This document shows positions 8,097 to 32,000 of a stretch of 32,000 nt of DNA, piece by piece. A model generated the notes under the pieces. The model saw only the letters and a list, made by a program, of their open reading frames with translations. It was not told where the DNA came from and searched no databases. The translations under genes were made by a program, and so were the position numbers. Position 1 is the stretch's first letter; every line of letters starts with the position of its first letter. The DNA comes from Candidatus Methanoperedens sp. (GTDB taxonomy: Archaea > Halobacteriota > Methanosarcinia > Methanosarcinales > Methanoperedenaceae). The stretch lies in the NCBI GenBank assembly GCA_041494705.1, contig JBGQBI010000001.1, positions 210,001 through 242,000 on the forward strand, given 5' to 3'.

Positions 8097-8168
8097 TGGA
8101 CCCGGCGGGATTCGAACCCGCGGCCTTTGCGTTGCGAACGCAACGATCTACCCCTGATCTACAGGCCC
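8097..8168 (-). tRNA. tRNA-Ala (anticodon CGC), no encoded CCA
   Basis: Reverse complement is GGGCCTGTAGATCAGGGGTAGATCGTTGCGTTCGCAACGCAAAGGCCGCGGGTTCGAATCCCGCCGGGTCCA, which folds into a cloverleaf. Acceptor is GGGCCTG/CGGGTCC with the G3:U70 alanine identity pair. D stem is GATC/GATC, the anticodon stem TTGCG/CGCAA has loop TTCGCAA, and the T arm is GCGGG-TTCGAAT-CCCGC. Confidence 0.92.
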
Positions 8169-24542: not shown

Positions 24543-25790
24543 TTAAAGCTGCTGATACTTTGCAGCCTTCCCCAGCTCTTCCTCAATCCTCAGCAGTTGG
24601 TTATACTTCGCGTTCCTCTCGCTCCTCGCAGGTGCGCCAGTCTTTATCAGTTCGGCGCCGATAGCCACCGAAATATCCGCAATGGTTGTATCCTCGGTTT
24701 CCGCTGACCTGTGGCTCACGACCACTTTGAACTTATTCTTCTGTGCAAGCCTTGCTGCGTCAAGAGCCTCGGACAATGTGCCTATCTGGTTGACCTTCAG
24801 CAGAAGCGCATTTGCGGCATTCATTTTTATTCCCTGCTCAAGACGTTTTACATTTGTAACGAAAAGGTCGTCGCCAACGATTATCGTATCTTTCAATTTT
24901 CCTGTTAAAACCGCAAAATCATCGAACGCTTCTTCATGGAACGGGTCTTCAATAGAGAGAATAGGATATGTTTTCACAAGCTCGGCATAGAAATCCACCA
25001 TGTCATCCGGAGAAAATGCCTGTCCATCGATAGTGTATATGCCGTCCTTATAGAATTCCGACGCCGCGGCATCAAGACCGATAGTAATTTTTTTCTCATA
25101 TCCGCTTTCTTCAATAGCATTGGCGACTGCATCGAGCGCATCATTTGTGTTTGTAAGCGGCGGGGCGTAACCGCCTTCATATCCCACATTGACCGAAGAT
25201 TTGCCGTATTTTTTCGAAAGTATGGTGCCAAGCATTTGATATGTTTCAGAACCCATACGCAGCGCCTCCGAGTATGTCCGTGCGCCTCCCGGCTGTATCA
25301 TGAATTCCTGTATCGCAAGTTCGTTGCCCGCGTGTTTTCCCCCATTTATGATATTCATGGTGGGAACTGGAAGCGTGAATGCATTTGTGCCTCCAAGGTA
25401 GCGGAAAAGGGATAAACCGAGTGAATCCGCTGCCGCATGGGCAACAGCCAGCGAGACGCCAAGGATTGCATTGGCGCCGAGTCTTGATTTATTCTCCGTG
25501 CCGTCAAGTTCCAGCATAAGCCTATCGATATCGCGCTGGTCGCGAACGTCCATGCCGATGAGAGCTTCTTTTATTTCGGTATTGACATTGTTCACAGCAA
25601 TTTTTACACCTTTTCCATGATACCTCTTGTCATTATCCCTCAACTCAAGCGCTTCGTTTGTCCCTGTGGATGCGCCTGAAGGAACGCTTGCGCGCCCGAA
25701 TCCGATTTCCGTGGTAACATCGACTTCCACGGTGGGATTCCCGCGCGAATCAAGTATTTCCCTTGCATGAATGTTCTCTATTGTAAACAA
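24543..25790 (-). CDS. eno: Enolase (2-phosphoglycerate dehydratase)
   Basis: IHAREILDSRGNPTVEVDV...GASTGTNEALELRD...SHRSGETEDTTIADISVA (written here as SHRSAETEDT)...ARSERNAKYNQLLRIEEEL shows the canonical enolase motifs. Confidence 0.95.
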   Translation of the reverse strand: MFTIENIHAREILDSRGNPTVEVDVTTEIGFGRASVPSGASTGTNEALELRDNDKRYHGKGVKIAVNNVNTEIKEALIGMDVRDQRDIDRLMLELDGTENKSRLGANAILGVSLAVAHAAADSLGLSLFRYLGGTNAFTLPVPTMNIINGGKHAGNELAIQEFMIQPGGARTYSEALRMGSETYQMLGTILSKKYGKSSVNVGYEGGYAPPLTNTNDALDAVANAIEESGYEKKITIGLDAAASEFYKDGIYTIDGQAFSPDDMVDFYAELVKTYPILSIEDPFHEEAFDDFAVLTGKLKDTIIVGDDLFVTNVKRLEQGIKMNAANALLLKVNQIGTLSEALDAARLAQKNKFKVVVSHRSAETEDTTIADISVAIGAELIKTGAPARSERNAKYNQLLRIEEELGKAAKYQQL

Positions 25791-25971
25791 TGTCTCACCT
25801 GTCTTGACTGAATGGTTGCGGTTGTACTTAATTTTAATTATAATTTTCTCATGTATGAAGTCCGCTCATCGAAAAATCCTGACAGCTCAGGAAACCTTAT
25901 TTACAGATAATATTAAGCCAACTGTGTTTAAAATGAATAAGTATTTAAACGATTAGATATTATCTAATCTC

Positions 25972-27198
25972 ATGAAATCGATAAGCCAGTTTTTAGAACT
26001 ATACCCAAAAAAGAATACTAAAGATGTTTACAGGGCTGGAATCTATGCTTTCTTTGAATTCTTTGACTCCGAGATAAAACGCAACGGTAAAAAGGTAACA
26101 AAAAACGAAGCTGCACAATTTGAAAAGACAGCAAACGAATATCTGACCTTGAATGATGGTAAAAAAGCAGATTTAGAAGTTTATGTCAATGATTTAATGC
26201 GCTTCGCTGCACACCTTCATAATAAACCGCCAAAGACCGCTAAAACGTATCTGGGCGCGATAAAAGAGTATTTGGGTTACAATGGGATAGAATTTACGCA
26301 AAGACAGCTAAAAACCATACGTTTAAAACTGCCTAAAGGTGGGGTTAGAACCATAGAGAATGACATGGATCGTAAAATTATCCAGCAGATTTTACAGCAT
26401 ACAGATATCAAAGGTCGGGCTTTGTTTTTAACAGAGGCTTCAAGTGGTATGAGGATAGGCGAAGCGTTGCAGATAGAACTTGATGACGTGTTGCCATATT
26501 TAGAGAATAATCCAGTTATGATCTCTATCCGGGGGGAATACACGAAAACAGGCGAACAAAGGTCTGTATTCATATCCGCAGAGGCAAAAGACGCTTTGAT
26601 TGAATGGTTGAAGGTTAGAAAGCAATACCTGAAATCTGCTGTAAATAAAAATCGCGGGCTTATTAATAATGGCAACGCGAAGCTAAAGATTTTAGATGAT
26701 ACCAGGCTTTTTCCATTCACAGACAATAACGCTTTAGAAATGTGGAACAATGCCGTAAATAATGCGGGTTTGTTATCCATCGATAAAGGGACCAACCGCA
26801 AGCAATTGAGGATACACCAGCTTAGAAAGTTCTTTAGATCGCAGTTAGCCTTGGGCTGTCCTGTGGATATTGTAGAGGCCCTGATGGGTCATGAAGGCTA
26901 TCTTACGGAAGCCTACAGGCGATATACAAAGGCTCAAATGGCTGAGTACTACCTGAAAAATGAGCATTACATTACCATAGCTCAAAATCAATCCGTTGAA
27001 GCGATAAAAAAAGAAATCACAAATGAGATGAACGAAGCCATAAAAGGGCTTGTGGTTGAGAATCAGGGGCTGCAATCTAAAAATAAAGCGTTGGAGGATA
27101 AATTAACACGACTTGAGAAAGTGGTTAAAGTTGTGGCAAAAGTAGCTATGGAAGACCCAAGCCTATTACCTGCAATGAAGGATTTTATGAAGGATTAA
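25972..27198 (+). CDS. Tyrosine recombinase / phage-type integrase with a C-terminal coiled-coil extension
   Basis: Catalytic signature elements: SGMRIGEAL (Arg I), LRIHQLRKFF (HxxR), MGHEGYLTEAYRRY (His/Tyr nucleophile region). N-terminal SAM-like core-binding domain. Tail reads ENQGLQSKNKALEDKLTRLEKVV. Confidence 0.85.
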   Translation: MKSISQFLELYPKKNTKDVYRAGIYAFFEFFDSEIKRNGKKVTKNEAAQFEKTANEYLTLNDGKKADLEVYVNDLMRFAAHLHNKPPKTAKTYLGAIKEYLGYNGIEFTQRQLKTIRLKLPKGGVRTIENDMDRKIIQQILQHTDIKGRALFLTEASSGMRIGEALQIELDDVLPYLENNPVMISIRGEYTKTGEQRSVFISAEAKDALIEWLKVRKQYLKSAVNKNRGLINNGNAKLKILDDTRLFPFTDNNALEMWNNAVNNAGLLSIDKGTNRKQLRIHQLRKFFRSQLALGCPVDIVEALMGHEGYLTEAYRRYTKAQMAEYYLKNEHYITIAQNQSVEAIKKEITNEMNEAIKGLVVENQGLQSKNKALEDKLTRLEKVVKVVAKVAMEDPSLLPAMKDFMKD

Positions 27199-27230
27199 GG
27201 CGAGGGGTCATTTCACTCTTTTTTTAAAAA

Positions 27231-27262
27231 ATAGCGTTAACGCTATTTGAAAGTAGCGTTAA
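27231..27262. promoter_or_regulatory. 16-bp perfect palindrome ATAGCGTTAACGCTAT plus an extra half-site TAGCGTTAA, upstream of the first AbrB-like gene
   Basis: Palindrome at 27231-27246 and half-site at 27254-27262. Lies between the integrase T-run (27219-27225) and the ATG at 27308. Followed by the direct repeats ctgtgtt(t)atat and tatatgtta. Confidence 0.5.
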
Positions 27263-27307
27263 TAAATATCTGTGTTTATATACACTCTGTGTTATATGTT
27301 ATAGTAT

Positions 27308-27535
27308 ATGTTACACAAAATTCAATCCGTAGGAGATTGTCATTTTGCCTATATCCCCAAATGGATAATAGAGCATTTTGGCTTAAAAGTCGGGGATAAA
27401 CTCGACTTTCGTATAGATGGAAACTGTATAAAAGCAATGCCTGTAGCCCCTTCCGCCAAGAATGAACTACAGGTAGCGCAGCACCCAGTAGATAGCATAG
27501 GTGATGGCAATGATTTATTGCACACAAAGCCTTAA
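27308..27535 (+). CDS. AbrB/SpoVT-type swapped-hairpin DNA-binding protein
   Basis: GDCHFAYIPKWIIEHFGLKVGDKLDFRIDGNCIKAMPV fits the AbrB/MazE pattern (xxIPkxxxxxlglkxGDxlxfxxxxxxixlxp). Confidence 0.55.
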   Translation: MLHKIQSVGDCHFAYIPKWIIEHFGLKVGDKLDFRIDGNCIKAMPVAPSAKNELQVAQHPVDSIGDGNDLLHTKP

Positions 27536-27582
27536 ATCTTTTTCTAAGTTGCGGACCAACGCCATAAGCAAAGGGGTATTGT

Positions 27583-27702
27583 ATGAATGAAATAAGTTCT
27601 TCACCTAATAGCTTTGCTTTTTTAGATGGGCTTGAACAGTGGGCGGCCTGGGCAGAACTGCAATTAGCTGAAAGAAAAGCATCAGAGGCATCAAAAAATT
27701 AA
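27583..27702 (+). CDS. Hypothetical 39-aa protein
   Basis: Translation: MNEISSSPNSFAFLDGLEQWAAWAELQLAERKASEASKN. A purine-rich aagggg lies upstream. Co-directional with its neighbours and followed by a small stem (agcggt/accgct). Below the track cut-off. Confidence 0.3.
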   Translation: MNEISSSPNSFAFLDGLEQWAAWAELQLAERKASEASKN

Positions 27703-27741
27703 AAACCGAAAGCGGTCGGCAAAACCGCTTCCAGCCAAAAC

Positions 27742-27909
27742 ATGCTACTTTCTTTATTATTGCTATCAATATTAAATCTTTCGCCTGTGTCCGAACAAAC
27801 AGGGCGAATGATTCCATGCGTTCAATGTGGAGCCTGGTTTTTTACCCGGGAAGGCAGGGAAGAACACGATAAATGGTGTATCGGTTATGATCCGGAGCAG
27901 GGCAAATGA
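27742..27909 (+). CDS. Small C2HC zinc-finger protein (55 aa from the first ATG; may start at the internal MIPCVQC)
   Basis: ...MIPCVQCGAWFFTREGREEHDKWCIGYDPEQGK. Its stop overlaps the next ATG as ATGA (27906-27909). Confidence 0.4.
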   Translation: MLLSLLLLSILNLSPVSEQTGRMIPCVQCGAWFFTREGREEHDKWCIGYDPEQGK

Positions 27910-28238
27910 AGCAAGGCCGCAAATCTTGCTTTTCTCACTCTAAAGAGTGGGCGAATTCTCAATTACGGTTCGGGATAAATCTGCTGAAATGCCTGGCATG
28001 TTCTCAGAGTTTAGACCGGGCAATTTCTGACGCTGTTTCAATACGCCAGACATTAGCTAATGCGGGGTACTGGTGGCAAGCCAAGACGCTGGATCACTGG
28101 ATTCACCTTGTAAAGAAGAAGGGTGACTTTATTGACAGCAAGGCGAGGGTAGGCGAGCCTTGCGTACAGGAAGACAGCGCCGAAGGCGATTTACGGGCTT
28201 TGCCCGACTCTAAGCAAGGGCTTAGAGGGGTGTCTTAA
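27906..28238 (+). CDS. Hypothetical protein (110 aa)
   Basis: Track ORF coupled on both sides (ATGA upstream, TAATG downstream). No family recognised. Confidence 0.45.
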   Translation: MKQGRKSCFSHSKEWANSQLRFGINLLKCLACSQSLDRAISDAVSIRQTLANAGYWWQAKTLDHWIHLVKKKGDFIDSKARVGEPCVQEDSAEGDLRALPDSKQGLRGVS

Positions 28239-28303
28239 TGTCGTCGTCGGCGTCGTCTCTGAGTGCCTGCAGGCACGAAGTACCAGGGCGGGTGTCTGCA
28301 TGA
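28238..28303 (+). CDS. 21-codon bridging mini-ORF (MSSSASSLSACRHEVPGRVSA) linking the 110-aa gene to the Rep-like gene; possibly only a coupling or leader element
   Basis: Its ATG (28238-28240) overlaps the upstream TAA as TAATG. Its TGA (28301-28303) overlaps the ATG at 28300 as ATGA. The sequence is a GC-rich patch with a (GTC)n-like tract and the 14-bp palindrome gtgcctgcaggcac (28263-28276). Confidence 0.3.
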   Translation: MSSSASSLSACRHEVPGRVSA

Positions 28304-29631
28304 ACGTAAATCTTTTATCCTCTATACATAGGGGAAAGCCTACAAGTCAGATTGTTTTACCTCTAACAACGTCTGCGGATGCTTATGTTCAAAACACCAA
28401 CTTTGACTCGCATTCTTTAGACAGTTCAAAACATGTTACTCTCGTTGAGGTCAAAAATATGGATGATTACCACAAAAACCATAATATCATTCATCTGGAC
28501 TCAATGACTGACCTTACGCGGCCATCGATGGATTATATCAATTACATTTCTGAATATGCGCATCTCGACAAAGCGGCGGCAGCCGTGGCCGCCACATCCG
28601 AGGTCGTGTACTACAATGGCTATAAATGCGAAAGTGGGCACGATGTTTATAACCCTTATTATGTTGGCGGCCCCTATTCCCCATATAAACGGGATAAAGT
28701 TTCGAGCAATTCTGCTTATCGGTTAGCTCATCGCCTATCGAAATTACAAGACCTTTTGCCAAATGAATCTCTTTATAATATTGGTATAGATTTGACGTTC
28801 CCGGATTATGTCAGTAAAATAGCATATCAAGACCCCAAAAAAGCCGAAGCTATCGCTACTAAATGCGTCAATGTTTTTCTAAAATCCCTCTCTAAAGAAA
28901 AGCGGTGGGTTCGTCATAAAGGCCAAAAACTGTTTAATTCTTTCAATGTTCATCTATGGCACAGTCATAACCCTGACTGCGTAGATGAAATTCATACCCC
29001 CACTGTTCCTCATTTACATGTACATTTGAATTTAATAAATGCGGTTTGTGATAGCAAGGATCCTAATTATAAATTAACTCGGTTCAATCCTATTATACCC
29101 AGATATGCGATAAAAGTGGCTTGGCAATATGCTTTATTTAAACAGGGTTTTAATGTTCCCGAACCTGATTTTTATATCCATCATTGTTCTCTAAAACATA
29201 AAGGTAAGTTAACTCATCGGATTCGTTACTGTGGGCGGTCTCCGCTTAATGATTTATATTCTTATTTTAACGATACTAAGTTTGATAAATCTAACGTCCA
29301 AACCACTTTTAATGAGTATTTAGTTAATTACAAAAACCCCAGGCATACATGCGGAGCGTTGCGGTTATTATCAAAGTTGCTTCCGGTTGAAGATATCGAG
29401 GATGAAGAAATCTGTCCGGTGTGTTCTGAAAAATCGGAATATCTCGGTAAAATCACAAAAGATGAAATTCATCAAATGGTGAGTGATGGTTCTGTTTCTG
29501 TTGTACATTGGTCATCACGAAAAAGGCGGTATTTTGCTATCGAAAGGGGTTCTATGGACAGCGTGAGCTATCTTGATTACTTTGATACTTCCGAGTTACA
29601 CGAGGCTCTGGCTTATTCTAATGGGGTATAA
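28300..29631 (+). CDS. Candidate HUH-superfamily rolling-circle replication initiator / IS91 (Y2-transposase)-like protein with a C-terminal CxxC element
   Basis: By-eye motif resemblance. Motif-1-like GIDLTFPD is present. FNVHLWHSHNP...VPHLHVHLNLIN parallels the IS91/pGT5-type VLHTWG...HPHLHxLV block. KLTHRIRYCGRSPLND lies where the YLxRY catalytic-Tyr segment sits. CPVCSE is also present. No Walker A motif seen. Coding status is solid; function is inferred. Confidence 0.5.
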   Translation: MNVNLLSSIHRGKPTSQIVLPLTTSADAYVQNTNFDSHSLDSSKHVTLVEVKNMDDYHKNHNIIHLDSMTDLTRPSMDYINYISEYAHLDKAAAAVAATSEVVYYNGYKCESGHDVYNPYYVGGPYSPYKRDKVSSNSAYRLAHRLSKLQDLLPNESLYNIGIDLTFPDYVSKIAYQDPKKAEAIATKCVNVFLKSLSKEKRWVRHKGQKLFNSFNVHLWHSHNPDCVDEIHTPTVPHLHVHLNLINAVCDSKDPNYKLTRFNPIIPRYAIKVAWQYALFKQGFNVPEPDFYIHHCSLKHKGKLTHRIRYCGRSPLNDLYSYFNDTKFDKSNVQTTFNEYLVNYKNPRHTCGALRLLSKLLPVEDIEDEEICPVCSEKSEYLGKITKDEIHQMVSDGSVSVVHWSSRKRRYFAIERGSMDSVSYLDYFDTSELHEALAYSNGV

Positions 29632-29749
29632 AGTGGGGGCTGTCCATGAATTTCTTTGAATTTTTAAAAACGAAAAGGAAATTAGACCGTCTGTGTATAC
29701 CGATTAAGGGTATAAAATCACGATTGGGTGTGACAAAACATAGAGGTTG

Positions 29750-29779
29750 ATGTACATCTAATGTACATTCAATGTACAT
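29750..29779. promoter_or_regulatory. Three copies of the 8-bp palindrome ATGTACAT at exact 11-bp phasing (iterons/operator)
   Basis: Copies at 29750-29757, 29761-29768 and 29772-29779. Lies between the Rep-like stop (29631) and the ATG at 29793. Confidence 0.65.
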
Positions 29780-29792
29780 GGTGATTTAAAAT

Positions 29793-30206
29793 ATGACTGA
29801 AGTATTCTGTGACTATTGCGGCAATCCCTTTTCTACAAGAGGAATCCGCTTACATAAACTACATTGCAAGGACAGACCAAAAACAACGGAAGTACATGAG
29901 AAGAACGGGATAGTACAACATCAAGAAGAGCGGCCGTTAAATCCATCTACAAGCGTTGTAGATACAAAAATAAAGGCTTCTACATCAGTTGAAGTACTGC
30001 CGGAGAACATCATAAGTACTGAAAAATACGCAGAAACGGAAATTGTACAAAATCAAGAAGAATCGCCGTTAAACCCTTCTACATCTGAAGTACAAACAGA
30101 TGTACAAAAAGACGATTCACAGGGCGATGACGGCGCATGGGTGGCAGGCGGTCTGCTGGGCCTTGGATTGCTTGGTGGCTTAATCGCCTGGATGAGGGGC
30201 CGTTAA
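29793..30206 (+). CDS. Membrane-anchored C2HC zinc-finger protein with an internal ~44-aa repeat
   Basis: N-terminus CDYCGNPFSTRGIRLHKLHC. Repeats are GIVQHQEERPLNPSTSVVDT and EIVQNQEESPLNPSTSEVQT. C-terminal TM helix is GAWVAGGLLGLGLLGGLIAWM. Confidence 0.6.
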   Translation: MTEVFCDYCGNPFSTRGIRLHKLHCKDRPKTTEVHEKNGIVQHQEERPLNPSTSVVDTKIKASTSVEVLPENIISTEKYAETEIVQNQEESPLNPSTSEVQTDVQKDDSQGDDGAWVAGGLLGLGLLGGLIAWMRGR

Positions 30207-30207
30207 A

Positions 30208-30384
30208 ATGCCTGATCCTGTAGTTCATCAAGTACAATGGAAAGTAGATGTTGGTTTAATCGTTGGTGTTATCGTTGTAGGCGCGGGCCTCTTCTGGCTG
30301 GCGCGTGCATTAAAAGACAGCGGGAGTACTACAAAAAACAGCATCAAAAACGCTGCGTTGAAAGCTGTACTTCCAGGGCAATAA
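30208..30384 (+). CDS. Small single-pass membrane protein (58 aa)
   Basis: Translation: MPDPVVHQVQWKVDVGLIVGVIVVGAGLFWLARALKDSGSTTKNSIKNAALKAVLPGQ. The ATG lies 2 nt after the upstream stop. Preferred over the two overlapping track ORFs (30237..30461 +, 30228..30449 -), which lack such features. Confidence 0.45.
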   Translation: MPDPVVHQVQWKVDVGLIVGVIVVGAGLFWLARALKDSGSTTKNSIKNAALKAVLPGQ

Positions 30385-30402
30385 AAAAGAAAACAGAAGG
30401 AT

Positions 30403-30639
30403 TCAACGGGGCTTCGGGAATCCTTCCGATACGCGGGTTTCCAGCGCATCTAAAGAAGTGAAGGGCAACGCATTGATTTTTTCCTTCACATCTTCAAGGC
30501 CATGTTCAAGCAATTTCTGTAAAAATTCATGTAGGCCGATTCCCAGCAGCTCTCCATAAAACCCTGCAAATATCAAGAGTTCCTGGTTAATCTCTAATTC
30601 TACCTTTCCGGTTTTCTTATCCTCGGCCATTGAAATCAC
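30403..30639 (-). CDS. Hypothetical protein (78 aa from GTG; 75 aa from the ATG at 30630)
   Basis: Track ORF and last gene of a three-gene minus-strand module. No family recognised. Confidence 0.5.
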   Translation of the reverse strand: MISMAEDKKTGKVELEINQELLIFAGFYGELLGIGLHEFLQKLLEHGLEDVKEKINALPFTSLDALETRVSEGFPKPR

Positions 30640-30779
30640 ACCCGCCTTACTATTACGGTATCCTGTGGACGTAACCCCAGCCTTGCCCTTGTTGCTTGCT
30701 CGATACCCGGTGTTCGTATATCTTCAGGTATTGCGCCCTCGATGGTCACTGTTACAGGCCCTACATCTTCCCTTACCAT
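30636..30779 (-). CDS. Hypothetical 47-aa protein
   Basis: Translation: MVREDVGPVTVTIEGAIPEDIRTPGIEQATRARLGLRPQDTVIVRRV. Its ATG overlaps the upstream TGA (TGATG), and its stop overlaps the downstream GTG (GTGTGA). Below the track cut-off. Confidence 0.35.
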   Translation of the reverse strand: MVREDVGPVTVTIEGAIPEDIRTPGIEQATRARLGLRPQDTVIVRRV

Positions 30780-31114
30780 CACTGCGCCCCCTCTGACATC
30801 TCCGTCTGCTTTGGTTCTTCCAAAGGCTGCACAACATCGGGGGTATTGGCCGGTGCGAACCGTGCAATTAGCTCCGGTATCGAAGTATAGCCGATGCCTT
30901 GCATAGAGTTTCTTAGCGATTTAATACCGCTATGGAGTGCTTTCTCAAACAGTTTATCCGGCTCCATCCCTATTATATTTGCATAGGCTACAACGGAGTC
31001 CACAGCTTCTTTATCGGTCTTGATTGATACATATAACCGCTTAAACTCGCCGTTTGCGGTTTTTATTTCTAAATTCTGTGCTGTTTTCAGTTCAATATTT
31101 GGTGTGTTTTCCAT
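30779..31114 (-). CDS. Hypothetical protein (111 aa), first gene of the minus-strand module
   Basis: Track ORF, divergent from the second AbrB-like gene. No family recognised. Confidence 0.55.
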   Translation of the reverse strand: MENTPNIELKTAQNLEIKTANGEFKRLYVSIKTDKEAVDSVVAYANIIGMEPDKLFEKALHSGIKSLRNSMQGIGYTSIPELIARFAPANTPDVVQPLEEPKQTEMSEGAQ

Positions 31115-31140
31115 ATTCTTTACCTTCTTTAAGTTCTCTA

Positions 31141-31203
31141 TGGAACTTATAGAACCTATAGAATGGGTTATTATAAATACTTTGTGGAACTTATGGAACT
31201 CAT
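31141..31203. promoter_or_regulatory. Divergent promoter/operator: paired repeats TGGAACTTAT-AGAACCTAT and TGGAACTTAT-GGAACTCAT flanking a TATA box (ttataaat, 31171-31178)
   Basis: The exact 10-mer TGGAACTTAT occurs at 31141-31150 and 31185-31194, each followed by a degenerate copy. The TATA element sits ~24-31 nt upstream of the ATG at 31202, suggesting a leaderless or short-leader transcript. Confidence 0.5.
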
Positions 31204-31348
31204 GGCAATTCTCGGAACTACGAAAGTATCTCAGGGTGGTAAGGTTACTTTGATTGAGTCGGTACGTGAGCGCATCAACGTTAAGGAAGGCGACATTATT
31301 GTTTTTGAGGAGCTATCGAAGGGTAACATTATAATCAGAAAAGGGTAA
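31202..31348 (+). CDS. AbrB/SpoVT-type DNA-binding protein (48 aa)
   Basis: MAILGTTKVSQGGKVTLIESVRERINVKEGDIIVFEELSKGNIIIRKG is a classical AbrB-like layout. Start trimmed from the track's 31163 to the ATG at 31202. Confidence 0.6.
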   Translation: MAILGTTKVSQGGKVTLIESVRERINVKEGDIIVFEELSKGNIIIRKG

Positions 31349-31443
31349 TAATTGGTTACCTTAACTTAAATATGAATTGCTTAACCGAAAAATATAAAGT
31401 TAGCTGTGTAATAGTTACAGCTAAGTGAAGGTAATATCACTTT

Positions 31444-32000
31444 ATGAAAGACCTGTTATCCTGGGACCAGACTTTATTCAAAGACAGCGAGCTTTTCGAG
31501 CTTGACCATATCCCGGAGCATTTTAACCACAGGGATACGCAGATGCAATCACTGATGTACGGCATACGCCCTGCCTTAAGCGGCGGGCGGTCTCTTAATA
31601 GCCTGTGCGTTGGCGCGCCGGGCACTGGTAAAACCACGGCTGTGCTTAAGATTTTCGAGGAAATAGAGAAACACGCGCCTGGAATTGTTCCGATTCTTGT
31701 GAACTGCCAGGTAAATTCCACAAGGTATGCGGTTTTCTCACAGATTTTTAAAAAACTCATTGGATACGCCCCGCCAACTTCAGGCGTTTCCTTCAAAAAG
31801 ATATTCGGCGAAGTTGCAAAACATCTTGCCGAGCGCGAGAAAGTGCTTGTAGTGGCTCTTGACGACATGAATTATCTTTTCTACGAGAACGAGGTAAATG
31901 AGGTGCTTTATTCACTCCTGCGGGCGCATGAAACACATCCGGGGGCGCGGATGGGTGTTATCGCAATACTGAGCGATACCGGGGTTCCGCATATTCTTGA
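31444..32000 (+). CDS. cdc6: Orc1/Cdc6 replication initiator (AAA+), N-terminal 185 codons; continues beyond the window
   Basis: MKDLLSWDQTLFKDSELFELDHIPEHFNHRDTQMQSLMYGIRPAL...LCVGAPGTGKTTAVLKIFEEI (Walker A)...VLVVALDDMNYL (Walker B). Absent from the track because it has no stop in the window. Confidence 0.9.
   Translation, partial: MKDLLSWDQTLFKDSELFELDHIPEHFNHRDTQMQSLMYGIRPALSGGRSLNSLCVGAPGTGKTTAVLKIFEEIEKHAPGIVPILVNCQVNSTRYAVFSQIFKKLIGYAPPTSGVSFKKIFGEVAKHLAEREKVLVVALDDMNYLFYENEVNEVLYSLLRAHETHPGARMGVIAILSDTGVPHIL

Follow-up and report, generated by a model that had tools for sequence, protein, structure and literature searches.

A 5,514-bp insertion between eno and orc1/cdc6 of Candidatus Methanoperedens, read as a probable integrative rolling-circle plasmid-like element

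Between the enolase gene eno and the replication initiator gene orc1/cdc6 of Candidatus Methanoperedens (anaerobic methanotrophic archaea, ANME-2d), small and tightly packed genes fill an interval that we read as an integrative rolling-circle plasmid-like element of 5,514 bp, a reading to which we give a probability of a little under 80%. The window analysed here is a stretch of 32,000 nt of the chromosome, and all coordinates are positions in it. On the left, outside the element, lies eno (24543..25790, minus strand), whose product is 97% identical in amino acids to the enolases of Ca. Methanoperedens metagenome-assembled genomes (MAGs). On the right lies orc1/cdc6 (31445..32000, plus strand), which runs off the window and whose full product, found on a second contig (L001), has 368 amino acids (aa) and the domains AAA_16, AAA_22, Cdc6_lid and WHD_Cdc6. 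An earlier reading of this DNA from its letters (the sequence-only reading) had noticed an AT-richer block at this place, and indeed the GC content of the element is 41.0% as against 46.8% in the rest of the window, making it the lowest 5.5-kb stretch of the 32 kb.

The insertion and its ends are defined by an empty site, since both flanks of the window align to the uninterrupted eno-cdc6 spacer of a MAG locus (L005, JBAVMS010000011.1) in which eno and cdc6 lie side by side in divergent orientation, with ~143 bp between them. The left flank is 92% identical to this locus, with the alignment reaching ~25910, and the right flank, including orc1/cdc6, is 95% identical at the nucleotide level, with the alignment starting at 31412. 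The two alignments overlap over 13 bp of the empty locus, TATTTATAGCTAA, a site that occurs there once between eno and cdc6. In the window it is represented by attL, TATTTACAGATAA (25898..25910, core TTACAG at 25901-25906), and attR, TAGTTACAGCTAA (31412..31424 within a region spanning 31400..31424, core TTACAG at 31415-31420), and the distance between the two cores gives the insertion length. attL and attR are imperfect 13-bp direct repeats, identical at 11 of 13 positions and sharing the 6-bp core. A blind repeat search of the window did not single them out because they are too short, and only the alignment to the empty site revealed them. This comparison of the eno-orc1/cdc6 interval among relatives had been proposed in the sequence-only reading, which had found no convincing att direct repeats and had set the ends at 25951 and 31348; these are now corrected to 25901 and 31420. 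None of the 32 Methanoperedens-type eno loci compared (L003-L034) carries any gene of the block, which is therefore not a segment conserved in synteny in all relatives, and profile searches with Pfam, PHROGs and NCBIfam place none of its open reading frames (ORFs) in an ordinary chromosomal family. The chromosomal attB is near-palindromic, CTTATTTATAGCTAAG, and the attR region contains an inverted repeat, TTAGCTGT (31400-07) and ACAGCTAA (31417-24), and both features are typical of simple recombinase core sites.

The leftmost gene of the element (25972..27198, plus strand) encodes a tyrosine integrase of 408 aa with a coiled-coil-like C-terminal tail, which is intact, as the sequence-only reading had it. 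The protein matches the Pfam family Phage_integrase (PF00589) at 1.8e-15 and PHROG integrase families at 4.5e-22 and 5e-21, and the full catalytic set is found in its translation (R161, K192, H282-x-x-R285, H307 and Y315/318). Among annotated proteins, Geoglobus ahangari pleomorphic virus 1 (GahPV1) has the best relative, an integrase that matches at 2e-7 over 95% of the query; a scan of IMG/VR with the integrase gave no relatives. The gene remains intact after integration and no tRNA gene is involved; the sole tRNA of the window, at 8097, is far from the element, in line with the earlier remark that none is adjacent, and was rejected as the integration target. With an intact recombinase, direct att repeats and an empty site in a relative, the element is, as judged from sequence, an integrative element of the tyrosine-recombinase type.

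The only other ORF of the element above 137 aa encodes a protein of 443 aa (28300..29631, plus strand) that carries the motifs of a HUH rolling-circle replication initiator (Rep): motif I as D164-L-T166-F-P168, the HUH motif as H238-L-H240-V-H242, motif III as Y310-x-x-R313, and a C-terminal C372-P-x-C375. In an alignment of 56 sequences H218, H240, W275, Y310 and R313 are invariant, and T166, P168, H238, H242, C372 and P373 nearly so, with T166, P168, H238 and H242 each conserved in at least 90%. When annotated phage and plasmid records were searched by tblastn, Rep matched the "rolling-circle replication initiation endonuclease Rep" of Geoglobus acetivorans pleomorphic virus 1 (GacPV1, 2e-11) and ThalV2 (4e-8), and marginally RepTP1 of plasmid pTP1. 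GacPV1 (BK065156), ThalV2 (BK065158) and GahPV1 (BK065157) are Thalassapleoviridae of Geoglobus. Profile-profile comparison of the Rep family alignment by hhalign gave 99.8% (6e-29) for the GacPV1 Rep, 99.05% (2e-18, 294 columns) for Rep75 of plasmid pGT5 and 98.7% (2.6e-16) for RepTP1. No Pfam, PHROG or NCBIfam model matched Rep itself, and no PDB entry was matched by sequence, either with the single sequence or with a profile. Among scattered relatives of Rep, Pfam found Rep_1, TrwC, REP_ORF2-G2P and Relaxase, which we take to be HUH-type families. Because the conserved motifs, the profile-profile matches and the Pfam matches of the relatives agree, we assign the 443-aa protein as a HUH rolling-circle initiator of the family of pGT5 Rep75, pTP1 RepTP1 and the Geoglobus viruses, whose Reps had previously been linked to pGT5 and pTP1 by Baquero et al. 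(PMC10919331). Of the earlier label "HUH/IS91-like", the HUH part thus stands (H238/H240/H242) and the IS91-like part does not. A search of BFVD with the AlphaFold2 model of Rep (predicted local distance difference test, pLDDT, 73) returned only Microviridae replication initiators among the named matches, the best unnamed match being at 3e-7. The DUF7845 domain of Rep-Arvir (PF25227) was rejected as an alternative, with no match in Rep or its 56 relatives, provided that the Pfam release used includes PF25227.

Relatives of Rep are numerous, and an exhaustive search was needed to see them: word-indexed protein searches gave five, a profile re-search added almost none, and an exhaustive search with hidden Markov model profiles gave 245 cluster representatives at E<=1e-3, 57 of them at E<=1e-30. 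A Rep profile scan of IMG/VR found no relatives; the metagenome scan used a 14-sequence Rep alignment. The closest relatives, 38-52% identical, are on contigs of 1.8-2.7 kb from which terminal overlaps are absent (L085, L086, L088), and in two of these (L086 and L088) tandem repeats lie just downstream of rep, as in the window element. More distant relatives (~28-30% identical) are mostly found on circular metagenomic contigs of 1.7-5.5 kb without virion genes. Seven contigs of 1.7-2.2 kb (L087, L089, L090, L092, L095, L097 and L103) encode essentially Rep alone and are taken as circular because of terminal overlaps of 30-127 nt. Another relative is on a 4.75-kb circle (L098), and one contig (L093) looks like two related units of 2.4-3.3 kb joined head to tail, each with a 96-aa membrane protein. 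Two JGI metagenome contigs of ~5.5 kb, circular by their 99-nt terminal overlaps, encode a ribbon-helix-helix protein and a protein of 1,089 aa in which a protein-primed-type family B DNA polymerase (PF03175) is followed by a C-terminal domain that belongs to the present HUH Rep family (L106:321-3590 and L107:196-3465), an unusual fusion.

If Rep initiates rolling-circle replication of an excised form, an origin should be present, and two regions near rep are the best candidates. The first (28185..28232, plus strand) consists of GGCGATTTACG, a hairpin CGGGC-ttt-GCCCG, a second hairpin CTCTAAGC-aagg-GCTTAGAG, and GGGG. Folded as single-stranded DNA, positions 28170-28300 reach -29.6 kcal/mol (z=-4.05), and 0 of 200 shuffles were as good. 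In the relative L088, too, the decamer GCGATTTACG precedes two hairpins, the stems of which differ in sequence by compensatory changes; the motif GATTTACG was not found in the more distant Rep relatives. A perfect 14-bp palindrome, GTGCCTGCAGGCAC (28263..28276), lies 24 nt upstream of the rep ATG. The second candidate, between rep and the membrane-protein module (29750..29779, plus strand), comprises three ATGTACAT palindromes at 11-bp spacing (TRF period 11, 2.7 copies), which may be iterons or an operator. This octamer has five matches in the window where 0.4 are expected. One further copy is inside rep (29018-29025), where it coincides exactly with the HUH-motif codons (cat tta CAT GTA CAT ttg), and the 24 nt around it are 75% identical to the last of the 29750-29779 repeats, probably by chance. 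The best match to a pC194/pGT5-type origin (TTATCTTG/ATA) is CTATCTTGATT at 29568, with two mismatches and not above chance. CTTGAT-containing matches inside the rep genes of relatives were discarded as origins, as they reflect the codons of a conserved peptide.

Other repeats lie in the non-coding parts of the element, where the sequence-only reading had already pointed to repeat-rich control regions; the octamers at 29750-29779, an 18-bp palindrome at 27230-27247 and a repeat at 31142 and 31186 agree with it. Upstream of the integrase gene, all on the plus strand, a TATA-like box TATTTAAA (25942-25949) is the probable promoter, and a perfect inverted repeat with 9-bp arms and a single base at its centre, GATTAGATA-T-TATCTAATC (25951-25969), is the probable operator; it ends 2 nt before the ATG and is the 19-bp palindrome that had been noticed earlier. 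Downstream of the gene (27219..27247, plus strand), a run of seven T is probably its terminator and is followed by the 18-bp palindrome AATAGCGTTAACGCTATT, which forms a hairpin in the DNA fold. The sequence CTGTGTTTA at 25922..25930 (plus strand) fits the pattern CTGTGTWWW, as do four more copies in non-coding parts of the element, at 27270, 27287, 29691 and 31404. All five are on the plus strand and there is one match in the other 26 kb, so that the window holds 6 where 1.5 are expected, for a pattern that was chosen post hoc. On the right, a divergent control region (31130..31199) has GGAACTTATAGAAC (31142) and GGAACTTATGGAAC (31186) flanking a TATA-like TTATAAAT (31171); their shared GGAACTTATRGAAC thus occurs twice, where 0.03 are expected.

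The remaining genes are small, and PHROGs, NCBIfam and low-threshold Pfam searches gave no usable match for them. The first gene of the rep module, abrB1 (27308..27535, plus strand), encodes an AbrB/MazE-like putative DNA-binding protein of 75 aa, with matches to PF04014 MazE_antitoxin (E=1.1e-3, 19.3 bits against a cutoff of 24.7) and TIGR01439 AbrB (E=9e-3). At the other end, abrB2 (31202..31348, plus strand), 48 aa from the M at 31202 in an ORF that opens at 31163, points outwards to attR and cdc6 and matches TIGR01439 AbrB at 2e-5 (24.2 bits against a cutoff of 28.3) and MazE_antitoxin at 1e-3. The two AbrB/SpoVT regulators of the sequence-only reading are hence present as ORFs that resemble AbrB/MazE, with matches that stay below the curated cutoffs. 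After abrB1 come a 39-aa ORF, o39 (27583..27702, plus strand), called as a gene on the Logan contig L002 and without family match, and a C2HC zinc-finger mini-protein (27808..27909, plus strand; the ORF opens at 27742 and 27808 is the probable start) whose stop overlaps the next ATG. That next ORF, o110 (27906..28238, plus strand, 110 aa), lies ahead of rep, overlaps the structured DNA element with its 3' end and has no family match; by eye a similar C-terminal stretch precedes rep in L088, and tblastn at E<=1e-2 gave no match. Downstream of rep, a 137-aa protein (29793..30206, plus strand) combines an N-terminal C2HC zinc finger, a repeated acidic, Ser/Thr-rich linker and a C-terminal transmembrane helix. 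Its zinc finger and that of the mini-protein, which itself has weak DUF7128 and Lar matches (E ~0.03), share the motif CxxCG..F.TR.G..H...C, so that the two C2HC fingers proposed earlier at 27742 and 29793 are paralogous motifs. Within the gene for the 137-aa protein (29910-30098), two direct copies of a 57-nt repeat, 75% identical and 132 nt apart, give the protein the segment IVQxQEExPLNPSTS twice. The following gene encodes a single-pass membrane protein of 58 aa by hydropathy (30208..30384, plus strand), and with transmembrane helices predicted in both proteins the earlier count of two small membrane proteins holds. On the minus strand, the three-gene orphan module of the sequence-only reading was recovered as overlapping genes of 111, 48 and 78 aa running from 31114 to 30403, which are also called as ORFs on L001 and have no family match. 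The trio possibly encodes small DNA-binding proteins, and our guess for the 111- and 78-aa proteins is ribbon-helix-helix; a single-sequence AlphaFold2 model of the former has low confidence (pLDDT 50) and a beta-alpha-alpha order.

The genes appear to be arranged in transcription units ended by T-runs: int alone; abrB1, o39, the zinc-finger gene, o110 and rep; the genes for the 137- and 58-aa proteins; the minus-strand trio; and abrB2. Leaderless promoters are suggested by TATA-like boxes that precede the starts of int, abrB1 and abrB2 by ~24-30 nt and are separated from them by operator-like repeats.

Taken together, the empty site, the intact integrase and the HUH Rep support what the sequence-only reading had proposed as an integrated small rolling-circle plasmid or a very small provirus. 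Between these two, the element is most likely a plasmid because it has no recognisable virion genes: tblastn of all its proteins against GacPV1 and ThalV2 matched only Rep, no VP4-type spike, VP3 or NTPase was found, and no ORF matched a PHROG structural family, which also agrees with the earlier failure to recognise a capsid. An integrative rolling-circle plasmid is the best reading since the element shares nothing but Rep and integrase with thalassapleoviruses and since relatives of its Rep are found on tiny circles. In such a plasmid the integrase would recombine an attP (...GTGTAATAG-TTACAG-ATAATATTAAG..., in which the right end meets the left) with the chromosomal attB CTTATTTAYAGCTAAG. 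Excision would yield a circle with the predicted attP junction GTGTAATAGTTACAGATAATATTAAGCC (AAGTTAGCTGTGTAATAGTTACAGATAATATTAAGCCAACTGTG) and restore the chromosomal attB CCTTATTTACAGCTAAGTG (GGAAACCTTATTTACAGCTAAGTGAAGG). Rep would then replicate the circle by nicking one strand at the double-strand origin, for which the best candidates are the element at 28185-28232, made up of the decamer and its two hairpins upstream of rep, and the three downstream repeats of 11 bp, and by becoming covalently attached through Tyr310; a host helicase and polymerase would complete replication. The AbrB-like, zinc-finger and orphan proteins may act on the repeat-rich operators to control the four or five transcription units, and a helper virus or vesicles possibly mobilise the plasmid.

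Several observations weigh against this reading. The circular form was not seen: of the eight contigs that carry this Rep, the two whose DNA was compared, L001 and L002, match the window at 100% identity and both show the integrated state. One further Rep-carrying contig has the same neighbouring genes as these two. An integrase is found in none of the other Rep-family contigs that were fetched, and within that set the pairing of Rep and integrase is so far unique to this locus. The att repeats are short and imperfect (11/13 with a 6-bp core), are not significant when taken alone, and depend on a single genome with an empty site, from a lineage that is related but not identical. The origin candidate is backed by a single relative, L088, and overlaps the coding region of the 110-aa ORF, and the window holds no clear excess of the pGT5/pC194-type nick sequence TTATCTTGATA (16 matches, 12 expected). 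The AlphaFold2 model of Rep has no significant fold match among solved structures, and profile searches leave most of the small ORFs without assignable function.

Both Rep and the integrase have their best annotated relatives in Thalassapleoviridae, and the two small membrane-anchored proteins could target the element to membranes. One may thus think of a satellite, a helper-dependent integrative mini-replicon packaged by a pleomorphic, pleolipovirus-like helper virus into its membrane vesicles or virions, much as pSSVi and pSSVx ride on fuselloviruses. We consider this unlikely: no helper virus is visible in the window and we know of none for the element, no structural gene is in common with thalassapleoviruses, and the more distant Rep relatives are tiny circles with Rep alone. 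Moreover, reports of viruses resembling pleolipoviruses concern Methanomassiliicoccales and Methanonatronarchaeia and do not include Methanoperedens (PMC10919331). Rep and integrase also occur together in the 13-17-kb Geoglobus proviruses, and with integrated copies as the only form seen on L001 and L002, a thalassapleovirus-like provirus that has decayed, having lost its structural module and its mobility, would be another explanation. Its chances seem lower still, as all ORFs are intact and tightly packed with stops overlapping starts, both att cores are kept, the integrase retains every catalytic residue, no pseudogene fragments of VP4, VP3 or NTPase were found, and the small Rep-only circles show that the Rep family supports autonomous mini-replicons.

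The position of the membrane-protein pair directly downstream of rep would suit a minimal enveloped virus with the 137- and 58-aa proteins as its only structural proteins. Such a virus is very improbable, having no fusion or spike protein and no PHROG structural or VP3/VP4 match, and at 5.5 kb it would be smaller than the pleolipoviruses considered here (~7 kb and up). What can be said for it is that the pleomorphic viruses of archaea amount in essence to membrane vesicles and contain few proteins (PMC10919331). An IS91-like HUH transposon is effectively refuted, in spite of the HUH motif and a marginal Y2_Tnp match in one of the 56 family members (E=0.009), since the window Rep has no Y2_Tnp match, a single tyrosine is invariant in the family, hhalign gives strong profile homology to plasmid and virus Reps (Rep75, RepTP1 and the Geoglobus-virus Rep), and the insertion has its own tyrosine integrase, recombinase-type att cores and a clean empty site.

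Read as an integrative rolling-circle plasmid, the element can be compared with several known systems. With pGT5 of Pyrococcus abyssi and pTP1 of Thermococcus prieurii it shares an initiator that is homologous over ~290 columns, including motif I, the HUH motif and the tyrosine motif, and large in comparison with bacterial rolling-circle Reps; all would be small circular replicons, the circle being proposed in our case. In contrast to the element, pGT5 and pTP1 are free plasmids of hyperthermophiles, of 3.1-3.4 kb with two genes each and no integrase; their Reps have 606-654 aa against 443 aa and are ~22% identical to that of the element, in which a pGT5-type origin sequence is not detectable. 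In Sulfolobales, pSSVi and pXZ1 are integrase-carrying plasmids of ~6-7 kb that insert site-specifically in the host chromosome, and pSSVi can be packaged by a helper fusellovirus. Their replication proteins are not HUH Rep75-like, and SSV-type integrases are split on integration into tRNA genes, whereas the integrase of the element stays intact and its target is a promoter. The Rep-Arvir (DUF7845/PF25227) replicons SNJ2, pRT1 and pAMT11 are archaeal integrative viruses and plasmids with rolling-circle replication, as we propose for the element, but their initiators have a Rep_trans-like, non-HUH fold. The Thalassapleoviridae resemble the element in being integrated and in having a HUH Rep and a tyrosine integrase beside an att site (PMC10919331). 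They differ from it as viruses of 13-17 kb with a VP3/VP4 module, whose hosts are marine hyperthermophilic Archaeoglobi.

The closest analogue in architecture is pC2A of Methanosarcina acetivorans, a plasmid of 5,467 bp with a rolling-circle RepA and a tyrosine recombinase SsrA (PMC9569500). Its size is close to the 5,514 bp of the element, its host also belongs to Methanosarcinales, and it too combines a Rep of the rolling-circle kind with a tyrosine recombinase, small ORFs and non-coding DNA rich in repeats. The earlier remark, in which no described element of this type was known of for Methanosarcinales-like archaea, needs correcting to that extent. The likeness is one of analogy: a relationship by homology was rejected, with a hhalign probability of 0.9% for RepA against the Rep family and E=0.88 for SsrA against the integrase in BLASTP. 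Moreover, pC2A has been deposited, and is in use, as a free plasmid, and a defined att site in the chromosome is not described in PMC9569500. For Methanoperedens, the literature that we found covers large elements only (10.1101/2023.08.02.551345), and our search found no paper that combines Methanoperedens, integrase and rolling-circle. The element is therefore a new example of an integrative element with a pGT5-family Rep, and not an exotic one.

Methanoperedens are key anaerobic methane oxidisers without a genetic system, and the element fills a gap in their known mobilome. A native replicon of 5.5 kb with a defined Rep, an integrase and mapped attB and attP is a candidate toolkit for ANME-2d genetics, just as pC2A became the basis of the Methanosarcina shuttle vectors such as pWM321 (PMC9569500); in haloarchaea, SNJ2 has recently been used in the same way (PMC13107129). 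In addition, the pGT5/pTP1/Geoglobus-virus Rep family, with marine hyperthermophiles at one end of its host range, is extended by our finding to a methanotroph that is mesophilic and lives in fresh water, and to numerous very small circles from the environment.

The target of the integration deserves separate consideration. The att core of the empty site falls on a TATA-like box ~24-37 nt upstream of the cdc6 ATG, and integration changes this box from CCTTATTTATAG to the element DNA GTGTAATAGTTACAG. The element DNA that is now upstream of cdc6 contains the CTGTGT-plus-AT-rich motif also found upstream of the element's own genes. The outward-facing abrB2 ends 96 nt before the cdc6 ATG with no oligo-T (T5) run in between, so that cdc6 could be read from, or regulated by, plasmid signals. 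In SNJ2, excision can rebuild an operon across attP (PMC13107129), and by analogy the abrB2-attP-int arrangement would allow a similar design. One may therefore speculate that the element influences expression of the host replication initiator. The fuller form of this idea, in which orc1/cdc6 is rewired to plasmid signals in the integrated state, the same signals are joined across attP to int after excision as an SNJ2-like excision-dependent operon, and the site is a recombination hotspot, we regard as doubtful.

Two observations on other contigs concern the left end of the element and its site. The Logan contig L002 (4,640 bp, SRR35969287) starts at window position 25873, which is 30 nt to the left of 25903 inside the att core, as is expected of an assembly-graph branch with k ~31 at the crossover; this could hint at a mixed population in which occupied sites coexist with empty or circular forms, or be a coincidence. 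In another Methanoperedens MAG (L004, JAPZAO010000150.1), collinearity with the window extends to ...GGAAACCTTATT, beyond which the sequence enters a different insert (L004:426-5040), which begins at the eno-proximal att position homologous to window ~25903 and whose far end is beyond the contig. This insert is a Gabija defence island encoding GajA (659 aa, PADLOC 1.5e-48), GajB (588 aa, 2.2e-73) and a 125-aa winged helix-turn-helix, Csa3-like protein. In most other Methanoperedens MAGs (L003, L006, L007, L008, L009 and L030), eno is not beside cdc6, and the sequences part ~60 nt before the eno start, running on into another, convergent gene, so that the eno-cdc6 adjacency is lineage-specific. 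Because the Gabija island occupies the same position as the element, the eno-cdc6 spacer may be an insertion hotspot in Methanoperedens.

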